64,000 bases of DNA from an uncultured Candidatus Saccharibacteria bacterium (GCA_965230925.1 OZ246403.1:3367-67366); one strand, 5' to 3'. Shown: positions 1-54,691, counted from the first letter of the stretch. Notes: generated by a model from the letters alone, not told the origin. Translations and numbers: made by a program.

Positions 1-98
1 GCGCCGAGTGCTCACTCCTTGCGTTTGTTGGTGGAAGATCCGGGTTTTGAAATCTTTACTTTTACCTTCGGCTAACGTTTAATAGGCGAGTTTGGTAC

Positions 99-181
99 GG
101 GCGCGTGGCGGAACTGGTATACGCGTACGCTTCAGAAGCGTATGGCCTCTGGCCTTGAGAGTTCAAGTCTCTCCGCGCCCA
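99..181 (+). tRNA. tRNA-Leu (anticodon CAG), type II tRNA with long variable arm; CCA not encoded
   Basis: Cloverleaf read directly from the sequence. The acceptor stem GGGCGCG (99-105) pairs with CGCGCCC (174-180), followed by discriminator A. The anticodon arm is TACGC / TTCAGAA / GCGTA, with anticodon CAG flanked by U33 and A37. A long variable hairpin GGCC-TCT-GGCC is present. The T-arm is GAGAG / TTCAAGT / CTCTC. Confidence 0.85.
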
Positions 182-228
182 CTTTTTTCTCGGTTTTCTG
201 TGGATAAAGCCAATTTTTTCTGATCTAT

Positions 229-240
229 AAGTGATATAAT
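229..240 (+). promoter_or_regulatory. Extended -10 promoter element (TGaTATAAT) 7 nt upstream of the GTG start of the giant fibre gene; possible leaderless or very short leader transcript
   Basis: TG at 232-233 and TATAAT at 235-240. No Shine-Dalgarno sequence lies between the element and the GTG at 248. Confidence 0.3.
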
Positions 241-247
241 TTTCTAC

Positions 248-3200
248 GTGAGAAAATCACGCCTTTTTCTGTATCTCGTTATCTTTTCTTTTATTTTTTC
301 TAGTATTTTCCCGACCGCTTTGGCCCAAGGCGTACCTACGGTTATCAGCTATCAAGGTCGTCTCGCTGATTCAAGTGGCAACCTTCTCGGTGGTTCCGGT
401 ACTACTTACTATTTCAAGTTTTCGATTTGGGATAATGCCACCGTTGGTTCTGGCTCCCAGCTTTACCCCAGTAGTTCACCAAGCTCGGTTTCTGCCACGG
501 TGCGGCAAGGTGTTTTTACTACGAGCATTGATGTTTCCGGATACAATTTTAATCGAGAAGATGCGGTTTATCTCCAAGTTGAAGCTTCGTCAGATAATTC
601 CACTTTCCAAACCTTAAGCCCACGCCAGCGTGTCACGGCCTCGGCTTTCGCTGAGCTCGCTGGCGCTGTTTCTGGTACCGGTTCTTCATCCTTTGGTACC
701 ACCACACCCATTACCAATTCTCAAGTGACCGTGGAGGCTACAACCACGACGGCTATTCCGCTCGCGCTTCGTGGCGCCTCTGGCCAAACAGCCAATCTTT
801 TTCAAATTCAAAACGCTTCTGCCTCCAATCTCTTTTATGTTAATTCAAGTGGCGCGGTATTTGCTTCTTCTACTTTGCAAGTTGCAGCAACCACTACAAT
901 TTACAGTGACTTGGTTCTTTCTGGGACGACTAAGTTTAATGGCAATACTTACACCTGGCCGAGTTCAATTGGTGCTGGTAATTTTCTTCAAACTGATGCA
1001 AGTGGTAATTTAACCTGGGCCTCGACTGGTGCTTCAGCTGGTGGTTGGACGGATGGGGGAACCACGGTAAGCCCGACGGCGTCTACAGACTTAATTTCAT
1101 TTACTCAGGGTTCTAGTACTATGTTTTCTGTTTTAGAGAACGCTTATTTTGGACGGACCGCTACAAGTACTTTTGATTCTGCTGGAAACTTGAACCTAGC
1201 TTCGACGGGAGAATATTATATTGGTGGAACGAATGTCCTTGATGCTACCACCCTCGGTTCCTCTGTTCTTGCCTCTTCCTTAACTTCTGTTGGCACTCTT
1301 TCTTCTTTAGCTGTTTCCGGTCTCTCCACCCTAACTGGCGGAATTTTCACCAACAACGCAACTTCAACTATCACCAATCTAACCACCGTCAACGCCACCT
1401 CTACCAATGCCACAACAACAAGACTTGCGATTACTGGTCTTGCTACTCCAGCGGGAACTTTTTTGGCTGTTAATCCAAATGGTCAGGTTATTGCCACAAC
1501 TACGCCGAGTGGTTCCGGCTCTGTTTCATCTGTATCCAACGCCAACGGTACTCTCACTATCTCGCCAACTACCGGTGCCGTGGTTGCTTCCCTCAATCTC
1601 GGCAACGCCAACACTTGGACGGCCCTCCAGTCTTTCTCCAGTGCCTCCTCCTCTCTCTTCTCCAACACTGGCACGGCATACTTTGGAGGAACGGCCACCT
1701 CCACATTCAACTCCGCTGGCGCTCTAACCCTCGCTTCAGCTCTCGCTGTAACCTCAGGTGGTACAGGTGCTACAAGTTTAGACAACCTGATTACTCTCGG
1801 CACTCACACCACTGGTAACTATCTTGCCACTCTTACCAATGCTGGCGGTCTTACCGTCGCTAACTCTGGATCAGAAACGGCTGGTGTCACTATTGCGATC
1901 GACACCGCTAATCCCAACACCTGGACCGGCCTCCAACAATTCACCGCCGCTTCCACCACCAGACTTTCGGTTTATGGGCCAAGTTATTTTGGTGGAACGG
2001 CGACGAGTACTTTTGACACCGCTGGTAATCTCAACCTTGCTTCTGGTGCCGCCTACTCAATTAATGGCACTAGCGTCTTAAACGCCAATACTCTTGGCAG
2101 TGGTATTACCGCTTCTTCCCTTACCAGCCTTGGTACACTTTCCAGTCTCTCCGCCTCCGGCCTCTCCACCCTAACCGGCGGAATTCTCGCGAACAACAGC
2201 ACTTCCACCATCACTAACCTCACAATGGTGAACAGCACCAGTACCAATGCCACTACTACCAACCTAGCAATCTCTGGTCTCGCTACTGCCGCCGGCACCT
2301 TCCTCGCCGTTAACCCCAATGGTCAAGTGATTGCGACCACCACTCCCACTTCTGGCATTATCACGATTGAAGAAAACAACAGCACGGTCACCTCAAGTGC
2401 CACCGTCATCGACTTCCTCGGTGCCGACTTTACGGTCACCGGTGCTTCTGGTGAAGGTGATGTCGCCATTGATTACGCCAACTCTGGTATTACCAGAGTT
2501 GGTCAGAATGAAACTGTCACTGGTAGCTGGACTTTATCTGGTCTTACCACCATGGCCCGAGCCTCCTCCTCTCTCTTCTCCAACACTGGCACGGCATACT
2601 TTGGAGGAACGGCGACTAGCACCTTCGACTCCGCTGGTATTCTCACCCTCATCAACAGTGGTCTCCATGTCTTCGACACCAATGCCAGCCACGATCTGAT
2701 CATCACTCCCGGTTCCGACTTAACCGCTGACCGCATTCTGACCATTACGACCGGTGACTCGGCTCGGACACTCACCTTAACCGGTGACACCTCTCTCACT
2801 GGCACCAACAGTGGCGACGTCACCCTCGCTGGTACGCCTGACTACATCACTATCTCTGGCCAAGTGATCACCAGAGGCACCATCGATATCGGCGATGACA
2901 CCAACTTAGCCGCCACCTATCCACTCATTCTCACCGGTGACACTCTTTCTTCTGCTCTAGCTACCACCTCAAGCAATACTTGGGCGGGGACACAAACTTT
3001 CAATGACATCGTGGTTACCGATGCTACCACCACCAGCTTCACCGTGGGCACCGATTACCTCACTGATATCACTGGTGGTGGCCTTACTCTCTCGGCTAAT
3101 GCTCTCACTGTCGATGATGTTACTCCTACCATGCTCCAAAGTGCTGACTTCGGGGATTTCACTTGCAATGGGACTAGCTGCGCTTTGGACTCTGACTCCA

Positions 3201-6200
3201 TTACTCTCGCCACCGACACCACCGGTAACTATGTTGCTACCCTCTCTTCTTCTGGTTCCATCACTGTCGCTAACTCAGGTTCAGAAAATGCTGCTGTTAC
3301 TGCTAATCTCAATATGGGCAACGCCAACACCTGGACGGCCCTTCAGTCCTTCTCCAATGCTTCCTCTTCTCTCTTCTCCAACACGGGTACGGCATACTTT
3401 GGTGGAACGGCTACCTCCAGCTTCTCTTCCACTGGAGCTCTAACCCTCGCTTCAGCCCTCGGCATCGCGAGTGGTGGTACCAACAACACTTCGTTCTCAA
3501 ATAACTCACTTCTTTTTTATAACGGCACTTCCATTGTTTCTACCTCGACGAGTCCGCTCTATGTTGGAGCAATTGTGGCCACTTCAACAACCGCGACAAC
3601 CACAATTTCTACTGGCGGTCTTGCCGTGGCGACCAACAAGTTAGTGGTACAACAAACTTCCGGCAACGTTGGTATTGGTACAGCCTCGCCCACAACGGGT
3701 CTTGATGTCGATGTGGCGAGCGACTTTTCGGGTGACGTGACCGTTTCTGGCGGCAGCACTCTCACCATTTCTTCTACCGGAGCGATTAATCAAACTGGTT
3801 CTGGTCAAGTGACTTTTGCGGGCAATGTGGATGCGACTAACGGCCTTGATGTGACCAATGCCAATTTTACCGTTGGTGGTAATAAACTCACCGTTGCTCC
3901 GGCCACAGGAAATACTGCGGTTGCGGGAACCATCGCCGTGACCGGTGCCGCAGCTGCTTCTTCCACTCTCCAAGTTACTGGAGCCACGCGACTTTATTCC
4001 ACTCTTACCACCGATGGCGCGCTTACGGCTTCCGCGGCTGGTACTGGTTTGAGTGTCACCAATAACGCCTCAGTCGGCGGTACTCTCGCGGTTACAGGCG
4101 CTGCCACTCTCTCAAATAATCTTGCGGTTACTGGCACATTAAGCGCCGCCGCCACCACGCTTTCTGGTAATTTGGCCATGGGCAGCAATCGCATTACCGG
4201 TCTGGCTAATCCTTCTTCCGACAATGATGCGGCCAATAAAACGTATGTTGACTCTATTGCGCAAGGTCTCTCTCTTAAGGACTCGGTGCGGGTGGGGACT
4301 ACGGCTAATATTACGCTCTCGGGTGAGCAGACGATTGACGGTGTGTCAGTGGTGGCGGGTAATCGGGTTTTGGTGAAGAATCAGAGCACCGCTTCGCAAA
4401 ACGGTATTTATACCGCGGCTTCTGGTGCTTGGTCGCGCTCTACCGATGCCGATGAGAGCAGTGAGGTCACGGCAGGTATGTTCACCTTCATTACTGAGGG
4501 TTCAACCAACGCCAATTCCGGTTGGGTGCTTACCACCACGGGAACAATTACTCTCGGTTCTACCTCTCTTTCCTTTACCCAGTTCTCTGGCGCCGGAAGT
4601 ATTATTGCTGGTACTGGTATGACGAAGAGCGGCAACACCCTTGATGTGGCGGGTACTACCGATCGGATTACAGCTAATGCTGACTCGATTGATATTGCTT
4701 CTACCTATGTGGGTCAAGCTTCTATCACGACCACTGGTGCGCTTAGTTCTGGTTCCATTGGTTCGTCTTTCGGTGCGATTGATATTGGGGCCGATGCGCT
4801 TACGGCCGGAGCGATTTCTGGTACCAATGTTTCAGCCTCTGGAAACTTGGCGATTACTGGCACTAGTGCCTTCACGGGTAATGTGACAATGTCTGGAACC
4901 TTGGCTGTGGCTACGACCACTCTTTCTGGAGACATTGTGATGAGTGGCAAGAAAATTACCGGCCTTGCTGATCCAAGCTCAGCTCAAGAGGCCGCCACCA
5001 AGGCTTATGTGGATTCCGTGGCCCAAGGTCTTACGGTTAAGGAAGCCGCTCGAGGCGCTTCCACCGCCAACCTCACTCTCTCGGGAGAGCAAACAGTAGA
5101 CGGCGTAGCTCTCGTGGCGGGTGACCGTATTTTGGTCAAGAATCAAAGTACTGGATCACAAAACGGTATTTATGTTGTTGCTTCTGGTGCTTGGTCACGC
5201 TCAAGTGATGCGAATGAAAACGGTGAGATCGCTTCGGGAATGTACGTCTTCGTCTCGAGCGGCACCACTCAAGCCAATACTGGTTGGTCGCTTACGACCA
5301 CGGGTTCAATTACGATTGACTCCACCTCGCTTGCCTTCACTCAATTCTCTGGTTCTACCGACATTACGGCGGGTGCTGGTCTGACGAAAACGGGTACAAC
5401 CATTGATATTGTTGGTACGGCCAACCGGATTACGGTTGCGGCCGATGCTATCGATATCGCCGCCACTTATGTTGGTCAGAGTTCAATTACCACAACCGGC
5501 GCACTCGTTTCTGGTTCCATCGCCTCCGGTTTCGGCAATATTAATATCGGCGCTTCAACTTTGGCGGCCGGGGAATCCACCTTCGCGACCACCACCTCTT
5601 TTGGTGATGTGGCTATTGGTCGCACGGCTACCACCACGATTAAGGGTAACTCTGCCACCTCCACCTTTAGCGGGGGAATTAGTTTAGCGGCCGGTAATTT
5701 AAATCTCGCAACCGGTGGCAGTTATCTCATCAATAATATCAATATTTTAAACGCTACAACTCTCGGCTCATCAGTGGTTTCTTCTTCTCTAACTGGCGTA
5801 GGGACACTTGCCTCTGGTGCTATCTCGGCCGGCTTCGGCGCTATTGATATCGGTGCCGATACTCTAGCCGCTGGTGCAACCACCCTCACCACTCTATCTG
5901 CCTCCGGCCTCTCCACTCTAACCGGAGGAATTCTCGCCAACAATGCGACAAGTACCATTACTAATCTAACGATGGTGAATGCAACAACAACCTCCGCCAC
6001 CACCACCAACTTCGCCATCTCTGGCCTTGCTACGGCTGCCGGCACTCTCCTTGCTGTTGATCCAAATGGTCGCGTTGTTGCCACCTCCACTCCTCAAGGT
6101 ACTGTTACCTCCGTCTCCAACTCCAACGGCACTCTCACCATCAGTCCCACCACTGGAGCAGTGGTTGCTTCGCTGAACTTAGGTAATGCTAATACTTGGA

Positions 6201-9200
6201 CGGCGCTGCAAACCTTCTCCTCTGGTCTCCTTTCTACCTCAAGTTCTACGATTACCAGTTTGACGATGGTAAACAGTACGAGCACCAGTGCCACCACCAC
6301 CAATCTCGCCATCTCTGGCCTTGCTACTGCGGCCGGCACCTTCCTCGCGGTTAACCCCAATGGCCAGGTGATTGCGACGACCACTCCCACTTCCGGTATC
6401 ATCACGATCGAAGAAAACAACAGCACCGTTACATCAAGCGCTACCGTCATCGACTTCCTCGGTGCTGACTTCACCGTTACCGGTGCTTCTGGTGAAGGAG
6501 ACATTGCCATTGATTATGCCAACTCCGGTATTACGCGAGTCGGTCAGAATGAAACTGTGACCGGTGCTTGGACTTTCTCTGGCCTTTCCTCTTTCGCTCG
6601 AGCCTCCTCCACCCTGTTCTCCAACACTGGCACAGCATATTTCGGTGGGACGGCCACCTCCACATTCGATTCATCTGGCGTTCTCACTCTAGTTAACTCC
6701 GGCCTCCACCTCTTCGATACCAACAGTTCCCACGATCTCATCATCACCCCTGGCTCCGACTTAACCGCTGACCGGATTCTCACCATCACCACTGGTGACT
6801 CGGCCCGCACTCTTACCTTAACCGGCGACACCTCACTCACTGGCACCAACACTGGTGATGTCACTCTTGCTGGTACTCCTGATTACATCACTATCTCTGG
6901 CCAAGTGATCACTAGAAACACCATCGACATTGGCGATGACACCAACCTTGCTGCCACCTATCCTCTCATCTTAACTGGCGATACTCTGTCTTCCGCTCTT
7001 GCCACCACCTCAAGCAATACCTGGGCTGGTACTCAAACCTTCAACGATATCGTGGTTACCGATGCCACCACCACCAGCTTAACTGTCGGTACTGACTATC
7101 TGACCGATATCACGGGCGGAGGTCTTACTCTTTCTGGTAATGCTCTAACCGTTGACGATGTTACTCCCACCATGCTCCAAAGTGCTGACTTTGGCGATTT
7201 CACTTGCAATGGCACCACTTGTAGTTTAGACAATGATACGGTAGCGGAAGCCGAGCTTGATCTCTCGGCTGTTACCCTCAACGACTTCACCAATGATGCT
7301 GGGTTTGTCACCACCAGTGGCGCCAATACTTGGACCAGTCTACAACAATTTGCCCGGGCTTCATCCACCATGCTTTCCGTTTATGGCCCCGCCTATTTCG
7401 GTGCGACGGCGACAAGTAGTTTCGACACGGCGGGCAATCTCAATCTTGCGAGTGGAGCGGCGTATTCTATTGCTGGAGCAAGCGTTTTGAACGCGACGAC
7501 ACTTGGTTCTAATGTTGTAGCATCTTCACTCACTTCTGTCGGTGCTCTCAATGGCGGCTCCATTACTTCTGGTTTCGGAGCAATTGATATTGGAACAGAC
7601 GGATTTACTGGTGGTAATTTAACCTTATCGGCCACCGGCACCGCCATTTCTCTGGGGGTCGGTAGCACCACCCCTTGGGGTCGCTTCTCGGTAGAACTGG
7701 ATACTTATAACCCAGCGATGGTGGTGGCCAATCAAGGGTCATCATCACCTGCTTTTTACATTGGTGGTGTAAATCAGAACGGTAGGATTGGTATTGGAAC
7801 CAAAACACCGAATGACATGCTAGAAGTGAGTGGTAATATTGCTCTAACTGATGATGGCACAGCTAAAACCATTGGGATTTATCAGGGTTCTTTTGGTACT
7901 GATTTAACCGTTAGGGCAAGTGATAGTGGTGATATTACTGCGGGACATTTAAACTTAACTGCCGGTTCAGCTGGTGGTGGCACCGGCGGTAATGTAAACA
8001 TCACCTCTGGTAATGGGTTTGCTGGTTCTGACGGTAGTATCAACTTAAGTGCTCCTACCACCGGTGGAGCAGTAAACATTGTTGGTCAGATTATGAATAT
8101 TGGTTCGGCGGGAGTTAAGATTACCGCTGATGGTGACGGGGCCCTCACGCTTCTTGGTCTTGGTGACGGAAGTGATGAAAACCTAGTAATCAACTTCGAT
8201 GATACTGCGAACGAGATAGATATCACCTCAAGTACTGGGGTCACTCGCGTAGATTACAACTCCTTAATTATTGAATCGGGAGCACTACAAGTTGACACTG
8301 CCGCCACTGGTGTAAACATTGATACTGACGGCGACGGCATGCTCATTCTTCTTGGTACTTCCACCGGCGCTGATGAAGACCTTCGCATTAACCTCGACGA
8401 TACAGCAAACGTGATCGAGTTTACTTCCACCACCGGTGCGACAGAAGCTCGATTTAGCTCTATTGGTTTGTTGTCTACAGCCTCATCTACCATTGGTGCC
8501 GGTGGAGTGACAACAGGTCTTACTGTTAGCGGTACAGCCACGACTACTCTCGATGTGGTGGTGCTTGGTCAAGACATTCAACTTGGTTCCGCTGGTGTTA
8601 AGATGACTGATGACGGCGATGGAGCCATTACTTTCCTCGGTCTTGGTAATGGTAATGACGAGAGTCTTACCCTTAACCTCGATGACACTTCTAATCAAGC
8701 CGTTTGGACCACGGGCACCAGCATTAGTCTCTGGGATCTCCAGAGTATGGGTCTCAATGCTCTTGAGCTTTCGGTTGGTACCACTTCACCTTGGGGTGAT
8801 CTCTCGGTTGAGATGGACACCGACAGCCCATCATTTGTGGTGGCAAACCAAGGTTCTACCACCCCCGCCTTCTTCATTGGTGGCGTAAACGCTAACGGGA
8901 AAATTGGTATTGGTACCGCAAGCCCTAGCGCAATTCTTGATATCACCGGGGATGTTGTTCAGACTTTCACGGGAACTACGGGAGATGCTCATACCATCAC
9001 GGCTTCTTCTCTGACCACAGGTTCAGCTCTGGTGCTTACTGGGCCTTCGGCAACTGATGAGGGTGTAGACGATGCACTTCTTAAGCTCGTGGGTAATGTG
9101 GAAAACGTTGCTAGCGGTGGGGGGCTCTTTAGTAGCACGGCAACCCTAGAAACCAATAGCGGTACGGTAGGTAATAACGTTTATGTGTCCACGGTAAATT

Positions 9201-10894
9201 CCAATGAGGCCGTGACGGGTACGGGTATTTACAACACCCTCCAGTCTACTGTTGTCAATGGGGTGGTTGGCCAGACAAATTATGGTATTTATAATACGGT
9301 ATCAAAAACTGGAAACGATACTGCTGGTGCGACAGAAACCTACGGTATAGCCAGTTTGGCTTCAAATACTGGTTCTAGTGCGGGTACTAAAAATACTTAT
9401 GGCGGTTACTTCTCGGCTACTGGTAGCACTGGTGGCTCAGCGGTTACTTATGGTCTCTATTCTACCGCATCGGGAGGTGATTTAAATTATGCTGGATACT
9501 TCGATGCGGGTGACGTTGCTGTTGTTACAGGTAATTTATATGTGAGTGCTGGTAATTCCATTGTGACATCTGGAAAATTTGGCGTGGGGAGTAGTACCCC
9601 GTACGCCACGATCTCAGTCACCAATACTGGTTCTGGACCTTCTCTCGTGGTTGAAGACTCAACATCACCTGACACCACACCTTTTATCATTACCGCCGCT
9701 GGTGATGTGGGTATTGGCACCACTACTCCTTGGCGTAAGTTCTCAGTTGACGGCACAGTGAGCTTTCTTAACTTGACCAGCAATACTGGTGCTGTTACCG
9801 CTTCTATTTGTCTTGATTCTAATAATCAGGTAACTCGTAACACGCAAAACGAGACCTGTGTTGCTTCTTCACAACGATTTAAACACAATATTGAGTCGCT
9901 CCCAGAAGGATCAGGTTTGGCGGACCTCATGGACTTGAGACCGGTAACCTTTGAGTATAATGATCCTAATTTAGCTGGTATCCGGTATGGTTTTATTGCT
10001 GAAGAAGTTGAGCAAGTGGATGACCTTTTGGTTGGTTACGATAATGACGGTTTGGTCCACAGCGTGCGGCATTTAAGCATGATTCCATTAATGACCCAGG
10101 CCATTCAGGAGTTGAAGGGTCAGGTAGATATTCTTCAGTTGCAAATTGATGGCGGTGGAGTGGCTGGCTTAGCGCTTAATGCTCCACTCCAAACCAGCCA
10201 GCTAACCGTTGGCGAAATTGTGGCGCTTGATGGGCAAAAAATTACTTTCAATAACGACGTGGTGTTGCTCGGGCGACCGTACTTTAACTCTGATACTGGT
10301 GGCTTCGCCGAGATTGCGGAGGGTGATAAGGAGGTCGATGTGACTTTTGACGAAGAATATTCTGAAGATCCTGTAGTAAATGTAACACTCGCGGCGGATG
10401 AGAATGATGAAGAAGAAATTTTTGACGCTGATATTCGTTACTTGGTGACCGAGAAGGGAACTACTGGCTTTACGATTAAGCTCAACAAAAATGCGCCGGA
10501 GAAATTGATGTTTAACTGGATTGCTCTCGCGGTGAAGGACGCGAAAACTTTCCACTCGGAAATGATTGAGGGGCTCACCTTGCCAAGTGATGACAACGAC
10601 AACAATGGTAGTGGTGGTGGTAATAATGAAGAACAGAATGAAAATAATAATGAGGAAAGCCAAAATGATCAGAGTGAGCCCGAGCCGCCTGTTGATGAGA
10701 CAAATGATGAGCCTGTTGATGAGCCGAGCGATGAACCCGAACCCCCGACAGATGAACCAGAACCCCCTGCTGACGAGCCCGCAGATGATGAAGAAGTGAG
10801 CGAGTCGGAACCACCAGCCGAAGAAGTGGAAAATTCTGACGATTCAGGTGATAATGGCGGATCAGAAGAACCAGCTGAACCAGAAAATCCATGA
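248..10894 (+). CDS. Giant secreted Thr/Ser/Gly-rich fibre/adhesin protein (3548 aa). It has an N-terminal signal peptide and many internally repeated beta-rich modules. Phage tail-fibre-like repeats (ITGLA(N/D)PSS..DAA(N/T)K.YVDS) are present. A C-terminal peptidase S74 / endosialidase-type intramolecular chaperone auto-processing domain (about 9815..10150) is followed by an acidic D/E/P-rich tail (about 10570..10894).
   Basis: One continuous 10.6-kb ORF. The signal peptide is MRKSRLFLYLVIFSFIFSSIFPTALAQG. The motif SSQRFKHNIESL...FIAEEVEQVDDLLV...MIPLMTQAIQEL matches the Ser-Lys dyad region of tail-spike chaperone domains. The tail is rich in DEPEPP. The protein is paralogous to 54692..59992. 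Confidence 0.85.
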   Translation: MRKSRLFLYLVIFSFIFSSIFPTALAQGVPTVISYQGRLADSSGNLLGGSGTTYYFKFSIWDNATVGSGSQLYPSSSPSSVSATVRQGVFTTSIDVSGYNFNREDAVYLQVEASSDNSTFQTLSPRQRVTASAFAELAGAVSGTGSSSFGTTTPITNSQVTVEATTTTAIPLALRGASGQTANLFQIQNASASNLFYVNSSGAVFASSTLQVAATTTIYSDLVLSGTTKFNGNTYTWPSSIGAGNFLQTDASGNLTWASTGASAGGWTDGGTTVSPTASTDLISFTQGSSTMFSVLENAYFGRTATSTFDSAGNLNLASTGEYYIGGTNVLDATTLGSSVLASSLTSVGTLSSLAVSGLSTLTGGIFTNNATSTITNLTTVNATSTNATTTRLAITGLATPAGTFLAVNPNGQVIATTTPSGSGSVSSVSNANGTLTISPTTGAVVASLNLGNANTWTALQSFSSASSSLFSNTGTAYFGGTATSTFNSAGALTLASALAVTSGGTGATSLDNLITLGTHTTGNYLATLTNAGGLTVANSGSETAGVTIAIDTANPNTWTGLQQFTAASTTRLSVYGPSYFGGTATSTFDTAGNLNLASGAAYSINGTSVLNANTLGSGITASSLTSLGTLSSLSASGLSTLTGGILANNSTSTITNLTMVNSTSTNATTTNLAISGLATAAGTFLAVNPNGQVIATTTPTSGIITIEENNSTVTSSATVIDFLGADFTVTGASGEGDVAIDYANSGITRVGQNETVTGSWTLSGLTTMARASSSLFSNTGTAYFGGTATSTFDSAGILTLINSGLHVFDTNASHDLIITPGSDLTADRILTITTGDSARTLTLTGDTSLTGTNSGDVTLAGTPDYITISGQVITRGTIDIGDDTNLAATYPLILTGDTLSSALATTSSNTWAGTQTFNDIVVTDATTTSFTVGTDYLTDITGGGLTLSANALTVDDVTPTMLQSADFGDFTCNGTSCALDSDSITLATDTTGNYVATLSSSGSITVANSGSENAAVTANLNMGNANTWTALQSFSNASSSLFSNTGTAYFGGTATSSFSSTGALTLASALGIASGGTNNTSFSNNSLLFYNGTSIVSTSTSPLYVGAIVATSTTATTTISTGGLAVATNKLVVQQTSGNVGIGTASPTTGLDVDVASDFSGDVTVSGGSTLTISSTGAINQTGSGQVTFAGNVDATNGLDVTNANFTVGGNKLTVAPATGNTAVAGTIAVTGAAAASSTLQVTGATRLYSTLTTDGALTASAAGTGLSVTNNASVGGTLAVTGAATLSNNLAVTGTLSAAATTLSGNLAMGSNRITGLANPSSDNDAANKTYVDSIAQGLSLKDSVRVGTTANITLSGEQTIDGVSVVAGNRVLVKNQSTASQNGIYTAASGAWSRSTDADESSEVTAGMFTFITEGSTNANSGWVLTTTGTITLGSTSLSFTQFSGAGSIIAGTGMTKSGNTLDVAGTTDRITANADSIDIASTYVGQASITTTGALSSGSIGSSFGAIDIGADALTAGAISGTNVSASGNLAITGTSAFTGNVTMSGTLAVATTTLSGDIVMSGKKITGLADPSSAQEAATKAYVDSVAQGLTVKEAARGASTANLTLSGEQTVDGVALVAGDRILVKNQSTGSQNGIYVVASGAWSRSSDANENGEIASGMYVFVSSGTTQANTGWSLTTTGSITIDSTSLAFTQFSGSTDITAGAGLTKTGTTIDIVGTANRITVAADAIDIAATYVGQSSITTTGALVSGSIASGFGNINIGASTLAAGESTFATTTSFGDVAIGRTATTTIKGNSATSTFSGGISLAAGNLNLATGGSYLINNINILNATTLGSSVVSSSLTGVGTLASGAISAGFGAIDIGADTLAAGATTLTTLSASGLSTLTGGILANNATSTITNLTMVNATTTSATTTNFAISGLATAAGTLLAVDPNGRVVATSTPQGTVTSVSNSNGTLTISPTTGAVVASLNLGNANTWTALQTFSSGLLSTSSSTITSLTMVNSTSTSATTTNLAISGLATAAGTFLAVNPNGQVIATTTPTSGIITIEENNSTVTSSATVIDFLGADFTVTGASGEGDIAIDYANSGITRVGQNETVTGAWTFSGLSSFARASSTLFSNTGTAYFGGTATSTFDSSGVLTLVNSGLHLFDTNSSHDLIITPGSDLTADRILTITTGDSARTLTLTGDTSLTGTNTGDVTLAGTPDYITISGQVITRNTIDIGDDTNLAATYPLILTGDTLSSALATTSSNTWAGTQTFNDIVVTDATTTSLTVGTDYLTDITGGGLTLSGNALTVDDVTPTMLQSADFGDFTCNGTTCSLDNDTVAEAELDLSAVTLNDFTNDAGFVTTSGANTWTSLQQFARASSTMLSVYGPAYFGATATSSFDTAGNLNLASGAAYSIAGASVLNATTLGSNVVASSLTSVGALNGGSITSGFGAIDIGTDGFTGGNLTLSATGTAISLGVGSTTPWGRFSVELDTYNPAMVVANQGSSSPAFYIGGVNQNGRIGIGTKTPNDMLEVSGNIALTDDGTAKTIGIYQGSFGTDLTVRASDSGDITAGHLNLTAGSAGGGTGGNVNITSGNGFAGSDGSINLSAPTTGGAVNIVGQIMNIGSAGVKITADGDGALTLLGLGDGSDENLVINFDDTANEIDITSSTGVTRVDYNSLIIESGALQVDTAATGVNIDTDGDGMLILLGTSTGADEDLRINLDDTANVIEFTSTTGATEARFSSIGLLSTASSTIGAGGVTTGLTVSGTATTTLDVVVLGQDIQLGSAGVKMTDDGDGAITFLGLGNGNDESLTLNLDDTSNQAVWTTGTSISLWDLQSMGLNALELSVGTTSPWGDLSVEMDTDSPSFVVANQGSTTPAFFIGGVNANGKIGIGTASPSAILDITGDVVQTFTGTTGDAHTITASSLTTGSALVLTGPSATDEGVDDALLKLVGNVENVASGGGLFSSTATLETNSGTVGNNVYVSTVNSNEAVTGTGIYNTLQSTVVNGVVGQTNYGIYNTVSKTGNDTAGATETYGIASLASNTGSSAGTKNTYGGYFSATGSTGGSAVTYGLYSTASGGDLNYAGYFDAGDVAVVTGNLYVSAGNSIVTSGKFGVGSSTPYATISVTNTGSGPSLVVEDSTSPDTTPFIITAAGDVGIGTTTPWRKFSVDGTVSFLNLTSNTGAVTASICLDSNNQVTRNTQNETCVASSQRFKHNIESLPEGSGLADLMDLRPVTFEYNDPNLAGIRYGFIAEEVEQVDDLLVGYDNDGLVHSVRHLSMIPLMTQAIQELKGQVDILQLQIDGGGVAGLALNAPLQTSQLTVGEIVALDGQKITFNNDVVLLGRPYFNSDTGGFAEIAEGDKEVDVTFDEEYSEDPVVNVTLAADENDEEEIFDADIRYLVTEKGTTGFTIKLNKNAPEKLMFNWIALAVKDAKTFHSEMIEGLTLPSDDNDNNGSGGGNNEEQNENNNEESQNDQSEPEPPVDETNDEPVDEPSDEPEPPTDEPEPPADEPADDEEVSESEPPAEEVENSDDSGDNGGSEEPAEPENP
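2200..3200 (+). repeat. About 1-kb intragenic direct repeat, copy 1 (near-identical copy at about 6245..7245)
   Basis: The DNA and protein blocks NPNGQVIATTTPTSGIITIEENNST...FGDFTCNGT(S/T)C are almost identical in both copies. Confidence 0.8.
4110..5625 (+). repeat. Tandem duplication of an about 760-bp (about 253-aa) module, two copies (about 4110..4869 and 4870..5625)
   Basis: Each copy contains ITGLA(N/D)PSS..DAA(N/T)K(T/A)YVDS(I/V)AQGL...VKNQST.SQNGIY..ASGAWSRS.DA...FTQFSG. The two copies are about 75-80% identical. Confidence 0.75.
6245..7245 (+). repeat. About 1-kb intragenic direct repeat, copy 2 (pair of 2200..3200)
   Basis: Same block, about 90% or more nucleotide identity judged by eye, located 4.04 kb downstream of copy 1. 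Confidence 0.8.
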
Positions 10895-11250
10895 AAAAGC
10901 GTTTAATCATTATTATAGTAATCCTTATAATTATCGCTGCAGGGGCCTACTTTCTGAGCGGTTTCTTTAAGGTTGAGGTTAGTTCTGACTCGGTGGCAGC
11001 CACGGCGAATGAGTCTCGCGGTATTGTGGAGCGGGTGAGCAAACTAGTGATTTTGCCTGAGGGTGAGAACCCGGTGGTGGCCACAGTCAATGATCTCCGA
11101 CCGCTCGCGGATAAACCCTTTTTCAAGAACGCGAAAGTGGGTTACAAACTTCTTATTTACGAGAAGGCGGGGCGCGGTGTTCTCTATGATCCAGTAAAAA
11201 ACAGGGTGGTAGAGATGGCCAGCATTAGTCTTGGCAAATTGCCAGAATAG
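10891..11250 (+). CDS. Small membrane-anchored hypothetical protein (119 aa, N-terminal TM helix)
   Basis: The ATGA start overlaps the stop of the giant gene. The N-terminus MKKRLIIIIVILIIIAAGAYF is hydrophobic. No recognisable domain. Confidence 0.5.
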   Translation: MKKRLIIIIVILIIIAAGAYFLSGFFKVEVSSDSVAATANESRGIVERVSKLVILPEGENPVVATVNDLRPLADKPFFKNAKVGYKLLIYEKAGRGVLYDPVKNRVVEMASISLGKLPE

Positions 11251-11266
11251 TTTAAAATATCAAACC

Positions 11267-11725
11267 ATGGAAACAGAAACAATAGAAATTAAAAAGAAGG
11301 GAGGGAATGTGTGGTGGGTCATTTTATTAATCGTCATTTTGGTGCTCCTCGCTGGTTGGTGGTGGAAAACGGACGGTAATTTGTTTTCTTCCTCAGTCTC
11401 CAGTAATTATCAGGCGGTATTCTTGAGCAATAATCAAGTGTATTTTGGTAAATTAAGCGATCAGAATTCGCGCTACCCCAAGCTCACTGATATTTACTAT
11501 TTGCAGGTGCCGCAATCACTCCAACCCGGTCAGTCAAACAACAATATTAATCTCGTGAAGCTCGGCAGTGAGCTACATGGTCCCGCTGATAAAATGGAAA
11601 TTAATCGCGACCACATCCTTTTTGTCGAGGATCTCAAGACAGACTCCCAAGTTGTTCAAGCTATTGAGCAATATAAGAAAAATCAAGCTACCACTCCCGC
11701 TCCTGCTACCCCTGCCGGTAACTAA
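11267..11725 (+). CDS. Hypothetical single-pass membrane protein (alternative start at 11231)
   Basis: The ORF has a TM segment WWVILLIVILVLLAGWWW followed by a soluble domain. No family recognised. Confidence 0.45.
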   Translation: METETIEIKKKGGNVWWVILLIVILVLLAGWWWKTDGNLFSSSVSSNYQAVFLSNNQVYFGKLSDQNSRYPKLTDIYYLQVPQSLQPGQSNNNINLVKLGSELHGPADKMEINRDHILFVEDLKTDSQVVQAIEQYKKNQATTPAPATPAGN

Positions 11726-11744
11726 AATCTAGATTTGAGGCAAA

Positions 11745-11778
11745 ACAAAAACCCCGAGCGTAACCTCGGGGTTTTTGT
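11745..11778 (+). terminator. Rho-independent terminator hairpin (CCCCGAG-cgtaac-CTCGGGG followed by TTTTT)
   Basis: A perfect 7-bp GC-rich stem (11751-11770) is followed by a T-run at 11771-11775. Confidence 0.6.
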
Positions 11779-11787
11779 TACAATTTA

Positions 11788-13104
11788 ATGGCAAAGGTGA
11801 CAAGGAGATTAATAAGTGTTTTTTCAGTCGTTGCGATTCTGGCAATTTTTTCTGTCAGTTTTCGCTTTGGTTTCGCTGAAGAGTTTACTTCTTCCAGTTT
11901 TCGCGTGCTTGATCCGGTGCTGGCGCCGTCTGGTTTTTCGAGTTCAACCAGCTTTCAATTGTTTTCTAGCTTAGCTGAACTCGCCATTGGCACGAGCACT
12001 GCCTCAAGTTTTACCCTTGGTTCTGGTTTCTTGCTTTTCCCACAAGTTGATACGCCCGCTGTCTCGGCCACGGCCGGTGCGCAGCAAGTGGCGCTCTCTT
12101 GGACAGCCTCGACCGGTTACCTCGGTTGGACGGTAAATGGTTACGATGTGGGTCAGGCCACGGTTTCTGGTGGGCCGTATTCTTACACCTCGCTCGGAAA
12201 TGTTTTGAGTTCCACTCGCACTGGTCTTACCGCGAGCGTGCCTTATTACTTTGTGATTCGCCCCCTTGATGTCTTTGGTAATGCTCTTGCCACCTCCACT
12301 GAGGTTACGGCTACACCCACAGCATCTTCGGGTGGTGGCGGAGGTGGTGGGGGCGGCGGTAGCAGTAGCGATACGGAAGTGATTTTAATCGGTCGTGCTT
12401 ACCCGCTTAGCCGTGTAACCGTGCTAAAAGATGGTCAAGTTGCAATCACCACCATTGCGGGTCCGGATGCCAAGTTTAATATTACTGTTGGCGATCTTAA
12501 TGCTGGTAGCTATATCTTTGCTGTGTATGCTGAAGATGAAGCGGGTCGCCGTTCAAGTTTGTTTACTTTTCCGCTCACGCTGACAAATGGTGCTTCAACC
12601 CAAATTAGCGGCATTTTTCTCGCGCCTACGATCGCGGTTGATAAGTCTGAAGTGAAGCAGGGCGATAATATTGCGATCTTTGGTCAGGCTCAAGCGACTT
12701 CAAGTGTGACCATTGCCGTAAATTCACTACAACCTTTCTTTGCTACTACCACCGCTGATGTTGATGGTGTTTATCTTTATAATTTCGACACCGTTGTGTT
12801 GGAGCTCGGCGATCACAGCACCAAGGCTAAGTCGACAGTGGGGAATGAGATTTCTTCTTTCAGCCAAACCGTGGCCTTTAAGGTTGGCGATCAAAACGTG
12901 CTTCCCACGCCCGGCGCTTGCCCGGCGAAGGCTGATCTCAATAATGATTGCCGAGTGAACCTTGTCGACTTCTCCATCGCGGCGTATTGGTATCACCGGC
13001 CGCTCTCGGTTGATTTTGCAGTTAAGGAGAAGGATAAATTAAATGGCGACAATCAGATAAACTTGGTCGACTTTAGTATCATGGCGTATTATTGGACGGG
13101 TTAA
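11788..13104 (+). CDS. Secreted protein with an FN3/Ig-like region, a poly-Gly linker and a C-terminal tandem dockerin-like Ca-binding repeat pair (12931..13095)
   Basis: Signal peptide present. GGGGGGGGGG linker present. Two repeats, ADLNNDCRVNLVDFSIAAYWY and KLNGDNQINLVDFSIMAYYW, fit the dockerin loop pattern D-x-N-x-D-x-x-VN-x-x-D. Confidence 0.55.
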   Translation: MAKVTRRLISVFSVVAILAIFSVSFRFGFAEEFTSSSFRVLDPVLAPSGFSSSTSFQLFSSLAELAIGTSTASSFTLGSGFLLFPQVDTPAVSATAGAQQVALSWTASTGYLGWTVNGYDVGQATVSGGPYSYTSLGNVLSSTRTGLTASVPYYFVIRPLDVFGNALATSTEVTATPTASSGGGGGGGGGGSSSDTEVILIGRAYPLSRVTVLKDGQVAITTIAGPDAKFNITVGDLNAGSYIFAVYAEDEAGRRSSLFTFPLTLTNGASTQISGIFLAPTIAVDKSEVKQGDNIAIFGQAQATSSVTIAVNSLQPFFATTTADVDGVYLYNFDTVVLELGDHSTKAKSTVGNEISSFSQTVAFKVGDQNVLPTPGACPAKADLNNDCRVNLVDFSIAAYWYHRPLSVDFAVKEKDKLNGDNQINLVDFSIMAYYWTG

Positions 13105-13856
13105 ACATGGCAAAACTTTATTTTATTGAAGAAAATGGTTTGGTAAAACTGCTTCTCGATTCGCCTAACGAGAAGGTTAACTCTGTGGCTGGAGAAATTA
13201 CTTTGTCGGCAGGGACGGAGGTGCGCCAAGTACTTGAAGCTAATTCACTTATTAACTTCTGGTTAGACAAACCGGCAGTTAAAGAAAATAAAATAATTTT
13301 TTCTGGCATTATTCCGGGTGGTTATCAGGGTGCCGGTGGGCAAATTTTGAGTTTTTCTTGGCAGCCGCTACCAAATGTGCGCCTCTCTCGGGTGGAAGCC
13401 ACAATTGATGAAGAGCAAGTTCTTCTGCATGACGGTGTGGGTACGCCGGCTAAATTGCTGGTTGAACCACTCGTTTTATCAAGTGTTTCCGCTGCGGCAG
13501 AAGAATTAAATGATGAAATTCCACCGGAAACATTTACTCCGCTTATTTCCTCTGATCCCGCCCTTTTCGACGGACAAAAGTTTTTGGTTTTTCAAACTCA
13601 AGACAAGCAATCTGGTATTGATTACTACGAGGTTAAGGAAGGTCGCGGTGAGTGGTTGCGCGTTGAGAGTCCGTATCTTTTGCCGGATCAAACGGTGGCT
13701 GAGAGAATTTTGGTAAAAGCCGTTGATTTGGCGGGCAATGAACGAGTTGTCACAGCGTTTTCCCCCAGCGTCTCGTATCTTTATTATATCGGTGGCGGTA
13801 TAATTGTTTTGGTCCTATGTCTCATCGCGTGGAAAAAATTGTTTTCTCGTTCTTAA
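13092..13856 (+). CDS. Membrane-anchored (C-terminal TM) protein with an N-terminal cohesin-like domain and an Ig-like (VDxAGN) domain; alternative start at 13107
   Basis: GEITLSAGTEVRQVLEANSLINFWLD...IIFSGIIPGGYQGAGGQILSFSWQ resembles a cohesin beta-sandwich. C-terminal TM segment IGGGIIVLVLCLIAW. Shares the IDYYE...AVDLAGN module with the next gene. Confidence 0.4.
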   Translation: MDGLNMAKLYFIEENGLVKLLLDSPNEKVNSVAGEITLSAGTEVRQVLEANSLINFWLDKPAVKENKIIFSGIIPGGYQGAGGQILSFSWQPLPNVRLSRVEATIDEEQVLLHDGVGTPAKLLVEPLVLSSVSAAAEELNDEIPPETFTPLISSDPALFDGQKFLVFQTQDKQSGIDYYEVKEGRGEWLRVESPYLLPDQTVAERILVKAVDLAGNERVVTAFSPSVSYLYYIGGGIIVLVLCLIAWKKLFSRS

Positions 13857-15532
13857 TTGCGTTAGCTGTTTTTCTTCCGGCGCAACTTTTCGCGGCCACT
13901 CTTTCTGTTTCCCCACCAAGTGGAGCGTATTCTGTGGGGCAACTTTTTTCTGTTCAGGTAAATGCGGGTAGTAGCGATAAGGCGCTAAATGCCATTGCGG
14001 GCACACTCAGCTTCCCGGCCGATACGCTTGAGGCCGTGGCGGTTAATAAAACAAACTCCATCCTTTCTTATTGGGTGACTGAGCCGGTGATTACTAATAC
14101 AACCGGGACGGTTAAGTTTGAGGGCGTGGTGCCAAATCCTGGTTTTATTGGTCCTACTGGCCAAGCTGTTAGTATTACTTTCCGCGGCAAGAAGCCGGGC
14201 AGTGCGCCCATTACTTTTGCCAGTGGTTCTATCCTCGCCAATGATGGCGCGGGGACCGAGATTCTTAGTGGTATGTCGGGCGCCACGTTTACTATTGTGG
14301 GCACTCCGGTGCCTCCACCGCCGGTAATTCCTGCCGTGACACGAGTGCCGGCGGCGCCCAAGGTAACTTCAAGTACTCATCCTGATCCTGAGGTTTGGTA
14401 TGCAAGCAGTGCGCCCGCTTTTGCTTGGTCGCTTGGCGCCGATATTGATGGGGTCAACTTTGTGGGTGATAAGATTGCCGACAATAATCCGGGCACTAAG
14501 TCCGATGGTCTGATCTCGAAGTATCAATACGACGATGTGTCTGATGGACAGTGGTATTTCCATCTCCGTCTGCGCAATGCTGCTGGTTGGGGCGAGATTA
14601 CCCACTTTGGCTTCAAGATCGACACAACGAAGCCGGAACAATTTGAGGCAAGTCTCTTACCGCGTCAGGATGCTGGTGAGACCGAGCTTGGTGTTTTGGT
14701 GGCCGCCAGCGATAAAACCTCCGGAATTGACCACTACGAATTTAGTCTAGACGGCAGTGAGGCGGTAATTTGGGAAGATGATGGTAATCATTTATATCGA
14801 TTTAATGCTTTGCCAGGTAACCGCACCCTTATTGCTCGTGCCGTAGACAAGGCGGGGAATTATTTGGAGAAAGAACTTACGTTTACAGTAGACGGTTTAA
14901 CGCCGCCAGTGCTTGATCCTTTGCCGCCAGAATTGCCATATGGCGACACCTTAGGCATTACCGGTAGCACATACCCTAATCTCGAGGTGTATCTCACGGT
15001 CGCTGGTGAGAGAGGTGAGAAGTATGATTACCGCCTCTCAAGTGATCCGCTTGGTAAATTCTCGCTCGCGGTGGAGCAGAAGTTGAAGGAAGGAGAATAT
15101 CGCGTGAGCGCTTTTGTCATGAACGATCGCGGTTTGAGAAGCGACAATAGCGCGCCGGTAATTGTGAAAGTTAAACTCTCTTCATTTTGGAAGCTGAGCC
15201 TTATCACCACCAATGTGCTGGCGGTTACTATACCCATTCTTGCTCTCCTGCTCCTCCTGTTCTTCTTAATTTGGTATGCTTGGCACAAAATGCGAGCCTT
15301 TAAGAAACGATTACGCAAAGAGACGCGTGAGGCGGAGCAAGCTCTACATCAAGCCTTCGATCTCTTGCGAACTGATTTAGTAGAAGGGGTTGATCGTTTG
15401 GAAACGGCTGGCGATAAACGCGAGTTAACCCGCGATGAAAAAGCTTTGCTCCGCCAATTCCGCAAATCGCTCGACGAAGCCGAAAAATTCGTCCGCAAAG
15501 AAATTATGGACATCGAGAAGGAGGTAGATTAG
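13817..15532 (+). CDS. Secreted, C-terminally membrane-anchored protein with a cohesin-like domain (about 13890..14300), Ig/FN3-like domains, a TM helix and a charged cytoplasmic coiled-coil tail
   Basis: Signal peptide present. LSVSPPSGAYSVGQLFSVQVNAGSSDKALNAIAGTLSFPADTLEAVAV...TVKFEGVVPN...SITFRGKKPGSAPITF fits cohesin. TM segment VLAVTIPILALLLLLFFLIWYAW. The tail is K/R/E-rich and helical. Confidence 0.45.
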   Translation: MSHRVEKIVFSFLIALAVFLPAQLFAATLSVSPPSGAYSVGQLFSVQVNAGSSDKALNAIAGTLSFPADTLEAVAVNKTNSILSYWVTEPVITNTTGTVKFEGVVPNPGFIGPTGQAVSITFRGKKPGSAPITFASGSILANDGAGTEILSGMSGATFTIVGTPVPPPPVIPAVTRVPAAPKVTSSTHPDPEVWYASSAPAFAWSLGADIDGVNFVGDKIADNNPGTKSDGLISKYQYDDVSDGQWYFHLRLRNAAGWGEITHFGFKIDTTKPEQFEASLLPRQDAGETELGVLVAASDKTSGIDHYEFSLDGSEAVIWEDDGNHLYRFNALPGNRTLIARAVDKAGNYLEKELTFTVDGLTPPVLDPLPPELPYGDTLGITGSTYPNLEVYLTVAGERGEKYDYRLSSDPLGKFSLAVEQKLKEGEYRVSAFVMNDRGLRSDNSAPVIVKVKLSSFWKLSLITTNVLAVTIPILALLLLLFFLIWYAWHKMRAFKKRLRKETREAEQALHQAFDLLRTDLVEGVDRLETAGDKRELTRDEKALLRQFRKSLDEAEKFVRKEIMDIEKEVD

Positions 15533-15541
15533 AGTTAGTTA

Positions 15542-20772: not shown

Positions 20773-20780
20773 CCTTGATA

Positions 20781-54670: not shown

Positions 54671-54691
54671 TTAGGTCACAACTGAATATTG

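Follow-up and report, generated by a model that had tools for sequence, protein, structure and literature searches.

Old in-frame repeats of a giant gene probably encode shaft modules of a secreted, phage tail fibre-like surface protein of Patescibacteria

Introduction

A giant open reading frame (ORF) close to the start of a 64,000-nucleotide (nt) stretch of DNA from an uncultured Candidatus Saccharibacteria bacterium (GCA_965230925.1 OZ246403.1:3367-67366; hereafter the window) contains kilobase-scale repeats, and the question that it raises is whether these repeats are active sites of recombination and assembly failure or building blocks of the encoded protein. The initial annotation had favoured the former, describing near-identical blocks that would serve as substrates for RecA-mediated deletion or expansion and thereby vary the length and antigenicity of a fibre. 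The analysis reported here points to the latter: we consider it likely that the repeats are modular shaft building blocks of a giant Sec-secreted surface fibre of Patescibacteria, built like a phage tail fibre, and not recombination or assembly hot spots.

Results

The repeats are old duplicates retained in frame

The repeats lie within one giant fibre-type ORF, as had been proposed (Table 1), and comparison of the gene with itself recovered every repeat that had been listed at about the expected position. All repeat pairs found by self-BLASTN were far above chance, and every offset was a multiple of 3. What did not hold was the degree of similarity. The block of about 1 kb said to recur almost verbatim 4 kb downstream (block A) does recur, and its two copies align without gaps, but they are 82.4% identical in nt and 94.2% in amino acid (aa) sequence, with a longest exact run of 29 nt; self-BLASTN aligned 2222-3174 with 6263-7215 at 83.2% over 956 nt (E = 0). 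The 760-bp module said to be tandemly duplicated (module B) was also in place, with 4154-4791 matching 4916-5553 over 641 nt (E = 1e-57), but at an identity of 67.9% and with no exact run longer than 17 nt. Tandem Repeats Finder did not report this tandem, because its copies are only ~68% alike. Recurrence of the smaller modules placed at about 1270-2340 and 5760-6100 was confirmed as well (1144-1506 with 1984-2346, 68% over 366 nt, E = 1e-31; 1305-1639 with 5892-6220, 71% over 336 nt, E = 6e-42; 2142-2346 with 5889-6093, 76% over 207 nt, E = 5e-37), but near-identity was not, since their nt identities were 61-76% overall.

Module families were mapped by profile searches built from the repeat copies. 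The repetitive architecture extends from about nt 1076 to 9781, well past the interval originally flagged (2200-7245). Pairwise nt identity was 61-74% among STIT modules and 52-87% among YFGG modules. Block A (~325 aa) is a composite in which a YFGG module and other sub-modules accompany the latter half of a STIT module, and the left junction of its second copy is chimeric, half of a YFGG module being fused to half of a STIT module. This is the expected trace of a duplication with break points inside modules.

Table 1. Positions of the giant gene, its repeats and predicted domains, and the paralogous gene, in window coordinates
Feature	Position (nt)	Strand	Residues (aa)	Remarks
Giant ORF	248-10894	+		3,548 aa, GTG start; product a Thr/Ser/Gly/Ala-rich, putatively secreted fibre protein
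Predicted Sec signal peptide	248-325	+		MRKSR-LFLYLVIFSFIFSSIF-PTALA followed by QG; by inspection of the sequence
Conserved N-terminal domain	329-940	+	28-231	Ig-like beta-sandwich, then short beta segment
YFGG module, 45 aa, seven copies	1076-1204, 1604-1738, 1910-2044, 2522-2656, 3320-3454, 6563-6697, 7319-7453	+	first residues 277, 453, 555, 759, 1025, 2106, 2358	profile search
STIT module, 86 aa, four copies	1250-1507, 2090-2347, 5759-6094 (with insertion), 6098-6388 (partial)	+	first residues 335, 615, 1838, about 1982 (partial)	profile search
53-nt exact tract, copy 1	1643-1695	+		inside the YFGG module at aa 453
Block A, copy 1	2203-3178	+	652-976	
53-nt exact tract, copy 2	2561-2613	+		within block A copy 1, in its YFGG module; break point of Logan assemblies
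Module B, copy 1	4115-4882	+	1290-1545	holds phage virion surface domain; module hidden Markov model
Module B, copy 2	4877-5647	+	1544-1800	in tandem with copy 1
Block A, copy 2	6244-7219	+	1999-2323	ungapped against copy 1, offset 4041 nt
C-terminal region	7643-9781	+		three TPWG modules (V/I-G-I-G-T-x-x-P-x-x-x-L motif) and three DGDG modules
TPWG module, 73 aa, three copies	7643-7861, 8759-8977, 9569-9781	+	first residues 2466, 2838, 3108	
DGDG module, 67 aa, three copies	8072-8272, 8279-8470, 8555-8755	+	first residues 2609, 2678, 2770	
Peptidase_S74 intramolecular chaperone domain	9866-10021	+	3207-3258	Pfam PF13884
Acidic Pro/Glu/Asp-rich low-complexity tail	10586-10891	+		C-terminal of the S74 domain
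Paralogous S74 fibre gene	54689-59992	+		1,767 aa; LVIVD-repeat shaft (beta-propeller-type)

Divergence between the copies was concentrated at silent sites. In block A, 142 of the 172 differences fell at third codon positions, and Nei-Gojobori estimates of synonymous (dS) and nonsynonymous (dN) divergence were 0.97 and 0.046, respectively, a dN/dS of 0.05. The module B core (636 nt) was 65% identical in aa sequence with a dN/dS of 0.14, and the whole module (256 codons) was 59% identical in aa and 64% in nt sequence, with a dN/dS of 0.16. For the other module pairs the proportion of synonymous differences was 0.54-0.80, near or at saturation, and dN/dS, where computable, was 0.1-0.4. Because dN/dS between internal copies was 0.05-0.2, the giant ORF is a translated gene under selection. 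The repeats are old in-frame duplicates retained by purifying selection on the protein. Their present-day copies share only short exact stretches and therefore assemble unambiguously and are poor substrates for homologous recombination. Set against a yardstick for contingency repeats of at least 95% identity with long exact tracts, the identities were 82% (block A), 68% (module B) and 52-87% (YFGG), and the longest runs 29, 17 and 53 nt.

The same figures for block A could be read as codon scrambling, selected to stabilise the gene against recombination, in place of age alone. Such selection would fit the excess of aa over nt identity (94% against 82%) and the predominance of third-position differences, and the longest run of 29 nt is near the ~27 nt expected from random mismatch placement (a rough estimate). 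However, a dN/dS of 0.05 at a dS of ~1 is the normal outcome of purifying selection on an old duplicate, and the other module pairs are equally saturated, with more protein change. Codon scrambling is consequently regarded as highly improbable, and age under purifying selection is retained as the more probable explanation.

Block A substitutions were symmetric (C>T 47, T>C 46, with all other types present). A template and variable repeat pair of a diversity-generating retroelement was rejected on this substitution spectrum, the mismatches being third-position exchanges of C and T and not adenine-specific; no scan of the window for a reverse transcriptase was made.

A single exact tract probably marks homologous exchange between modules

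The longest exact repeats in the gene measured 53, 29, 23 and 23 nt, and only the first, on which the initial annotation was silent, exceeded 30 nt. Its two copies bound a loop of 918 nt. The two YFGG modules that carry it agree at all 53 positions of the tract and differ at 41 of the other 82 (codon-wise permutation, p ~1e-5), and the p value was still small when 15 pairs were allowed for. The partner YFGG module in block A copy 2 differed from tract copy 2 at 8 of the 53 positions. This pattern points to a recent short-tract intragenic gene conversion as the probable origin of the tract, which is the sole sign of homologous exchange between the repeats.

Relatives contain the same module types in other arrangements

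The two closest relatives found, L001 (CAYICB010000015.1) and L002 (CAYHYA010000023.1), are contigs of ERP119705 bins that both end inside the orthologous gene. The last 55 nt of L002 are an exact duplicate of its positions 3922-3976, 750 nt upstream. Both contigs are 4,780 bp long despite their differing sequences, an unexplained coincidence. Their N-terminal domains (N-domains) are 77% (L001) and 62% (L002) identical to that of the window protein and are followed by the same module types in another order. Pieces of block A in L001 and L002 are ~75% identical to both window copies. Since the window copies are closer to each other (94%) than to these relatives, the block A duplication post-dates the split from L001 and L002, and on this evidence it is lineage-specific yet old. 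Scans of genomes and metagenomes recovered no close relative with an intact block A; only its sub-modules were found in common.

One family member (L004) is 5,439 aa long. It shares the N-domain and the region after the S74 domain with the window protein, and its internal repeats are 69-88% identical. Among the proteins scanned, YFGG and STIT modules occurred only in the window, L001 and L002, whereas TPWG-type modules were widespread, with 1-9 copies. A contig of Ca. Nomurabacteria HK-STAS-PATE-30 (L006, JACKGI010000002.1) shares a block A sub-module only; at 9743-16585 it contains a 4,148-aa ORF in which a 1,878-bp unit is repeated ~3.6 times at 99-100% nt identity. This array is a truly near-identical kilobase tandem, of the type that the initial annotation had ascribed to the window gene.

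Taken at the sequence level, these comparisons indicate that repeat birth and reshuffling are real in the family over evolutionary time, and that the window gene represents the aged end of the spectrum. Among relatives, variation was seen in module order (L001 and L002) and in length (L004).

The assembly is reproduced from 2584 onward in different read sets

Exact look-ups identified five sequencing runs that contain the organism (SRR12822863, SRR12816583, SRR12816581, SRR12822861 and SRR12808459). The product of 2585-10891 (2,769 aa) was encoded exactly by four Logan contigs from different read sets. The contigs from SRR12822863 and SRR12816583, when compared as DNA, agreed with the window at every position over 8,811 nt each, and another comparison, over 18,667 nt, was likewise free of mismatches. 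All Logan contigs start at 2584, that is at 2614 minus 30, the first 31-mer that reaches past the 53-nt repeat. With k = 31, which we take to be the setting of the Logan assemblies, the graph would be expected to break at 2584 alone, as all other exact repeats are shorter than 31 nt. The different read sets therefore reproduce the tandem module B as well as block A copy 2, and there was no length variation among the four consensus assemblies between 2585 and the stop codon. Copy number is reproduced from 2584 onward, and repeats of 68-83% identity cannot collapse.

These results bear on whether the repeat structure might be an assembly artefact, with a falsely duplicated block or collapsed copies. 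In favour of an artefact, short-read contigs of the relatives stop inside the gene at exact repeats, as in the duplicated 55-mer at the end of L002, the 53-nt repeat is where the Logan contigs break, and the copy number of the 918-nt loop lies outside the independent contig coverage. However, the copies have diverged at 17-32% of positions, for the most part synonymously and always in frame, a pattern that mis-assembly cannot produce, and the k = 31 assemblies resolve everything from 2584 on identically. Furthermore, the gene contains no exact repeat of at least 30 nt besides the 53-mer, which reads of at least 100 nt would span. An artefact is therefore judged very unlikely. The warning that repeats of this kind are sites of assembly collapse is borne out across the family, where contigs break at exact repeats, but not for the flagged blocks, which are of 68-83% identity and are reproduced from 2584. 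The gene model is trustworthy at least from 2584 on, and the 918-nt loop is the only spot where copy number needs read-level confirmation.

The same assemblies bear on the proposal that RecA actively deletes or expands the repeats, giving length or antigenic variation within the population. Recombination that depends on RecA requires a perfectly matched stretch of at least about 20-30 nt, and its frequency drops sharply as sequences diverge. Several findings are compatible with such activity: all offsets are in frame, which would leave a recombinant translatable; the block A pair contains three exact runs of 23-29 nt; the 53-nt tract resembles gene conversion; family members vary widely in length and module order; and another giant Patescibacteria gene (in L006) holds 1.9-kb tandem units of 99-100% identity. 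Against this, identity is only 82% for block A and 68% for the tandem pair, and synonymous saturation implies that the copies have long coexisted without homogenisation or loss. In addition, the product encoded between 2585 and the stop codon is the same in the assemblies of four different runs, and the two that were checked as DNA are identical to the window. The designation of the blocks as RecA substrates was not upheld, their longest exact runs being 29 and 17 nt and their synonymous sites near or at saturation, and ongoing variation by this route is considered unlikely. Change in length and module content is evident over evolutionary time, in L001, L002, L004 and L006, but not in this population, in which the four Logan products from 2585 are identical. 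The interpretation of the repeats as old, selectively maintained parts of the protein is preferred, and the remaining results concern the nature of that protein.

The product resembles a secreted fibre with an S74 chaperone

The product is rich in Thr (16%), Ser (12%), Gly (12%) and Ala (11%). By inspection, it begins with a predicted signal peptide, in which a positively charged n-region precedes a hydrophobic core of 16 residues and an A-x-A site. Behind it lies a conserved N-domain, for which 236 homologues with 50-66% identity were found. Those with names belong almost entirely to Patescibacteria/Parcubacteria lineages (Vogelbacteria, Niyogibacteria, Taylorbacteria, Giovannonibacteria, Paceibacterota and Parcubacteria); one was labelled by its source as 'putative serine-rich adhesin for platelets-like', and many matches were labelled partial or lay on contigs of 1-5 kb. 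At E<=1e-3 the domain was found in 1,663 cluster representatives (50% clustering), nearly always starting at residue 30-50. Protein lengths among the best 150 representatives ran from 191 to 3,653 aa, and proteins of the family range from <200 to >5,000 aa. The AlphaFold2 (AF2) model of the domain had a predicted local distance difference test score (pLDDT) of 84 overall and of ~95 over the first ~107 residues, which form a confident beta-sandwich. In a fold search against PDB, this domain matched only generic immunoglobulin (Ig)-like sandwiches, none better than E = 0.019. Residues ~150-200 of the model weakly resemble the triple beta-helix of the streptococcal phage HylP tail fibre (root-mean-square deviation 2.2 A, 55 columns, E ~0.08), a resemblance that hints at a trimeric fibre starting directly behind the sandwich of the modelled domain.

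At the other end of the protein, the Pfam match to the Peptidase_S74 domain was clear (E = 1.7e-9; score 38.3 bits, cut-off 22; E = 9e-11 with the C-terminal piece alone). Its Ser-Lys motif, A-S3207-S-Q-R-F-K3212, aligns with ASDERLK of the phage tail fibre 8jov, with the Lys five residues past the Ser. The domain is followed by ~290 further residues, at the end of which is the acidic tail; a 24-nt tandem repeat (two copies, 83% matches) lies within this tail at 10687-10734. The V/I-G-I-G-T-x-x-P-x-x-x-L motif occurs four times in the giant protein, in the shaft and the C-terminal region (residues 1141, 2514, 2886 and 3154), and five times in the paralogue described below.

The protein has six cysteines in total, arranged as three close pairs (C973/C978, C2320/C2325 and C3188/C3204; nt 3164-3181, 7205-7222 and 9809-9859), the first two of which sit at the right-hand end of each block A copy. 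The pairs are likely to form small disulfide loops, and so few, paired cysteines would fit an extracellular protein.

The module B core matched a capsid decoration protein (PDB 9nx3, E = 1.2e-10). A virion protein of cyanophage PSS2 reaches up to 65% identity to module B, which also matched 376 phage records, with tail fibre, minor tail or decoration protein as their annotation, and PHROG families for head decoration and tail fibre. Block A had no match to phages by tblastn.

Other searches of the gene and its product were negative. Nine sub-pieces searched against Pfam at E<=1 gave nothing past S74 except chance-level matches, and no adhesin repeat family; the giant protein had no NCBIfam match, and no record was returned by exact look-ups of the complete product (3,548 aa) beginning with either V or M. 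Between 1 and 12000, scans for promoters and terminators did not rise above background. On the minus strand, ORFs of 100-140 codons were present at 1483-1803, 2503-2823, 5722-6510 and 6544-6864, two of which recur at the block A spacing; these are most likely by-products of biased codon composition and not genes.

The genomic context is cellular

Given its S74 domain, the capsid-decoration and tail-fibre domain in module B and the PHROG matches, the gene could in principle encode the tail fibre of a prophage and not a cellular surface protein. The genomic context does not support such an origin. The product carries a signal peptide, and nearly all 1,663 N-domain representatives place the domain right behind a leader of signal-peptide length. 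The giant gene has a tRNA-Leu gene immediately upstream, and its neighbours include Ig-domain proteins and Mur ligases; searched against PHROGs, these neighbours gave no phage structural family. Megablast of 1-11000 against 50,697 phage records gave no match. The paralogue, 44 kb away, lies next to genes for SecA and an M3 peptidase. A prophage tail fibre was rejected on this genomic context, there being no phage structural or morphogenesis cluster around the gene, and is rated highly improbable; the gene is treated below as that of a cellular surface protein.

The paralogue is 44% identical to the giant gene product in the N-domain and 38% in a C-terminal cassette of ~560 aa, but has a different shaft; its Ser-Lys motif is S-S-E-R-Y-K. 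From these sequences, the two genes look like a pair made by a shaft swap in which both ends were kept.

Cellular genes of the window encode SecA, Mur ligases, a NUDIX hydrolase, a VirD4-like ATPase and a large glycosylation cluster. The bacterium is a member of the Patescibacteria (candidate phyla radiation), probably of the Parcubacteria/Paceibacteria. Directly downstream of the giant gene, five small or medium-sized ORFs (10891-15532) have starts that overlap or abut. Two of them contain bacterial Ig-like domains (Big_6 and Big_13/OmpL47-type), and none has a family assignment; these ORFs may encode accessory or co-expressed surface proteins. The VirD4/TraG-like type IV secretion coupling ATPase is encoded at 20775-22430, 10 kb downstream of the giant gene. 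A long cluster of glycosyltransferase, polysaccharide and O-antigen-ligase genes occupies 23500-47100, and the G+C content is 0.37-0.40 at 24-34 kb compared with ~0.45-0.50 elsewhere. The low-G+C cluster may be an acquired island, and, as a speculation, the 23500-47100 cluster could glycosylate Thr/Ser-rich fibres.

Discussion

The observed repeat anatomy, divergence pattern, assembly reproducibility, domain content and cellular context indicate how the giant protein is built. From N- to C-terminus it consists of a predicted signal peptide, an Ig-like N-domain, a shaft of ~2,200 aa, the GIGTxxP region, the Peptidase_S74 chaperone and the acidic tail. The shaft is assembled from at least five module families (seven YFGG, four STIT, two block A and two module B copies, and smaller ones), which probably arose by in-frame duplication and shuffling, with some junctions inside modules. 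In the proposed mechanism, the Sec system would export the protein, and the N-domain, as a putative cell-proximal anchor, would hold it at the envelope. A homotrimer would then fold from the C-terminus, nucleated by the S74 chaperone, which would finally cut at Ser3207 and leave together with the acidic tail. The repeated modules would represent successive trimeric segments, their number setting the length of the shaft, and the fibre could serve in attachment to a host cell or to a surface or substrate. The scheme follows the logic of phage tail fibres and of the mosaic adhesive trimer (MAT) fibres of Bdellovibrio; we infer the trimeric state, self-cleavage, surface display and role in attachment.

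In MAT fibres, a signal peptide is followed by a conserved N-domain of ~130 aa and a mosaic fibre that is trimeric and has capping loops; their S74 domain carries SDxxxK (Caulton et al. 2024, PMC10769870), and the examples quoted there are ~900-1,000 aa long. Like the S74 subgroup of MAT fibres in Bdellovibrio bacteriovorus, the window protein is cellular and not viral, and its parts follow the same order, from signal peptide through a beta-rich domain, mosaic fibre and candidate loop motifs to S74. The V/I-G-x-G-x-x-x-P-x-x-x-L motifs repeated near its tip may correspond to the MAT loops, and both genomes contain several paralogues with swapped middle or tip parts. The strict published capping-loop pattern (V-G-G/N-pi-x-x-P-x-x-x-L) had no match in the giant protein, in which the motif is one residue longer; the V/I-G-I-G-T-x-x-P motif aligned weakly (E = 0.09) with three such motifs of the MAT fibre Bd2133 (PDB 8ond). 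The two systems also differ in that the host here belongs to the Patescibacteria and not the Bdellovibrionota, the protein, at 3,548 aa, is far longer, its Ser-Lys motif is S-S-x-x-x-K and not S-D-x-x-x-K, and it has ~290 residues, including the acidic tail, behind S74.

Phage tail fibres and tailspikes, such as the K1F endosialidase and the L-shaped tail fibre pb1 of T5, share with the window protein an S74 domain with the conserved Ser-Lys and a modular, repeat-rich shaft, and module B reaches 65% identity with surface proteins of phage virions. In characterised relatives, the S74 chaperone drives trimerisation and then cuts itself off. In contrast to phage fibres, the window gene has a cellular context, a Sec signal peptide and no phage genes nearby. 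Giant repetitive adhesins (RTX/Bap-type and serine-rich repeat proteins) are likewise very large, secreted and made of repeated modules, but the modules of the window protein are heterogeneous and shuffled instead of forming a uniform, near-identical tandem array, and its S74 terminus points to a phage-type trimeric fibre. The protein is thus of an already known kind, a modular, MAT-like S74 surface fibre resembling a phage tail fibre. Literature searches returned no paper linking S74 fibres or giant genes to Patescibacteria, which reflects the literature covered and is not proof of novelty.

Several points weigh against this interpretation. In familiar phage proteins the S74 domain is terminal, unlike the arrangement here, with ~290 residues behind it. 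The AF2 monomer model of block A (33-row alignment) had a pLDDT of 57 and a predicted template modelling score of 0.25, and is uninformative on the shaft fold and on the trimeric state. There was no Bdellovibrio name among the named top N-domain matches, PDB covers MAT fibres by their tips only, and any homology to the MAT N-domain is hypothetical. With regard to the stability of the repeats, the Logan confirmation covers 2584 onward, 3' of the stretch (248-2583) that holds the 918-nt loop, and the four Logan assemblies probably sample the window's own population, as consensus sequences that may conceal minor structural variants. Even with these points taken into account, a secreted surface fibre with a modular shaft is the interpretation that we think is probably correct.

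More tentatively, a broader view is possible, in which the gene belongs to a large Patescibacteria family of Sec-secreted, S74-terminated fibres with a common Ig-like anchor, whose shafts and tips might change as modules are duplicated, shuffled and exchanged with domains of phage virions. Such proteins could act as host-recognition fibres, as a counterpart of MAT fibres, and turnover of the shaft might change their reach and specificity.

The flagged repeats are old, diverged and stable, and matter little by themselves. Ultrasmall Patescibacteria that live as episymbionts have to attach to host cells, a step for which few molecules are known. According to a perspective (PMC11665869), a Saccharibacteria species has several predicted adhesins that are essential. 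The two paralogous fibres, with their matching ends and swapped shafts, together with the large N-domain family, would provide concrete candidates for host recognition. The giant gene would also offer a worked example of how such a fibre grows, by duplication, after which synonymous sites drift while the protein stays strongly constrained and a short tract is now and then converted.

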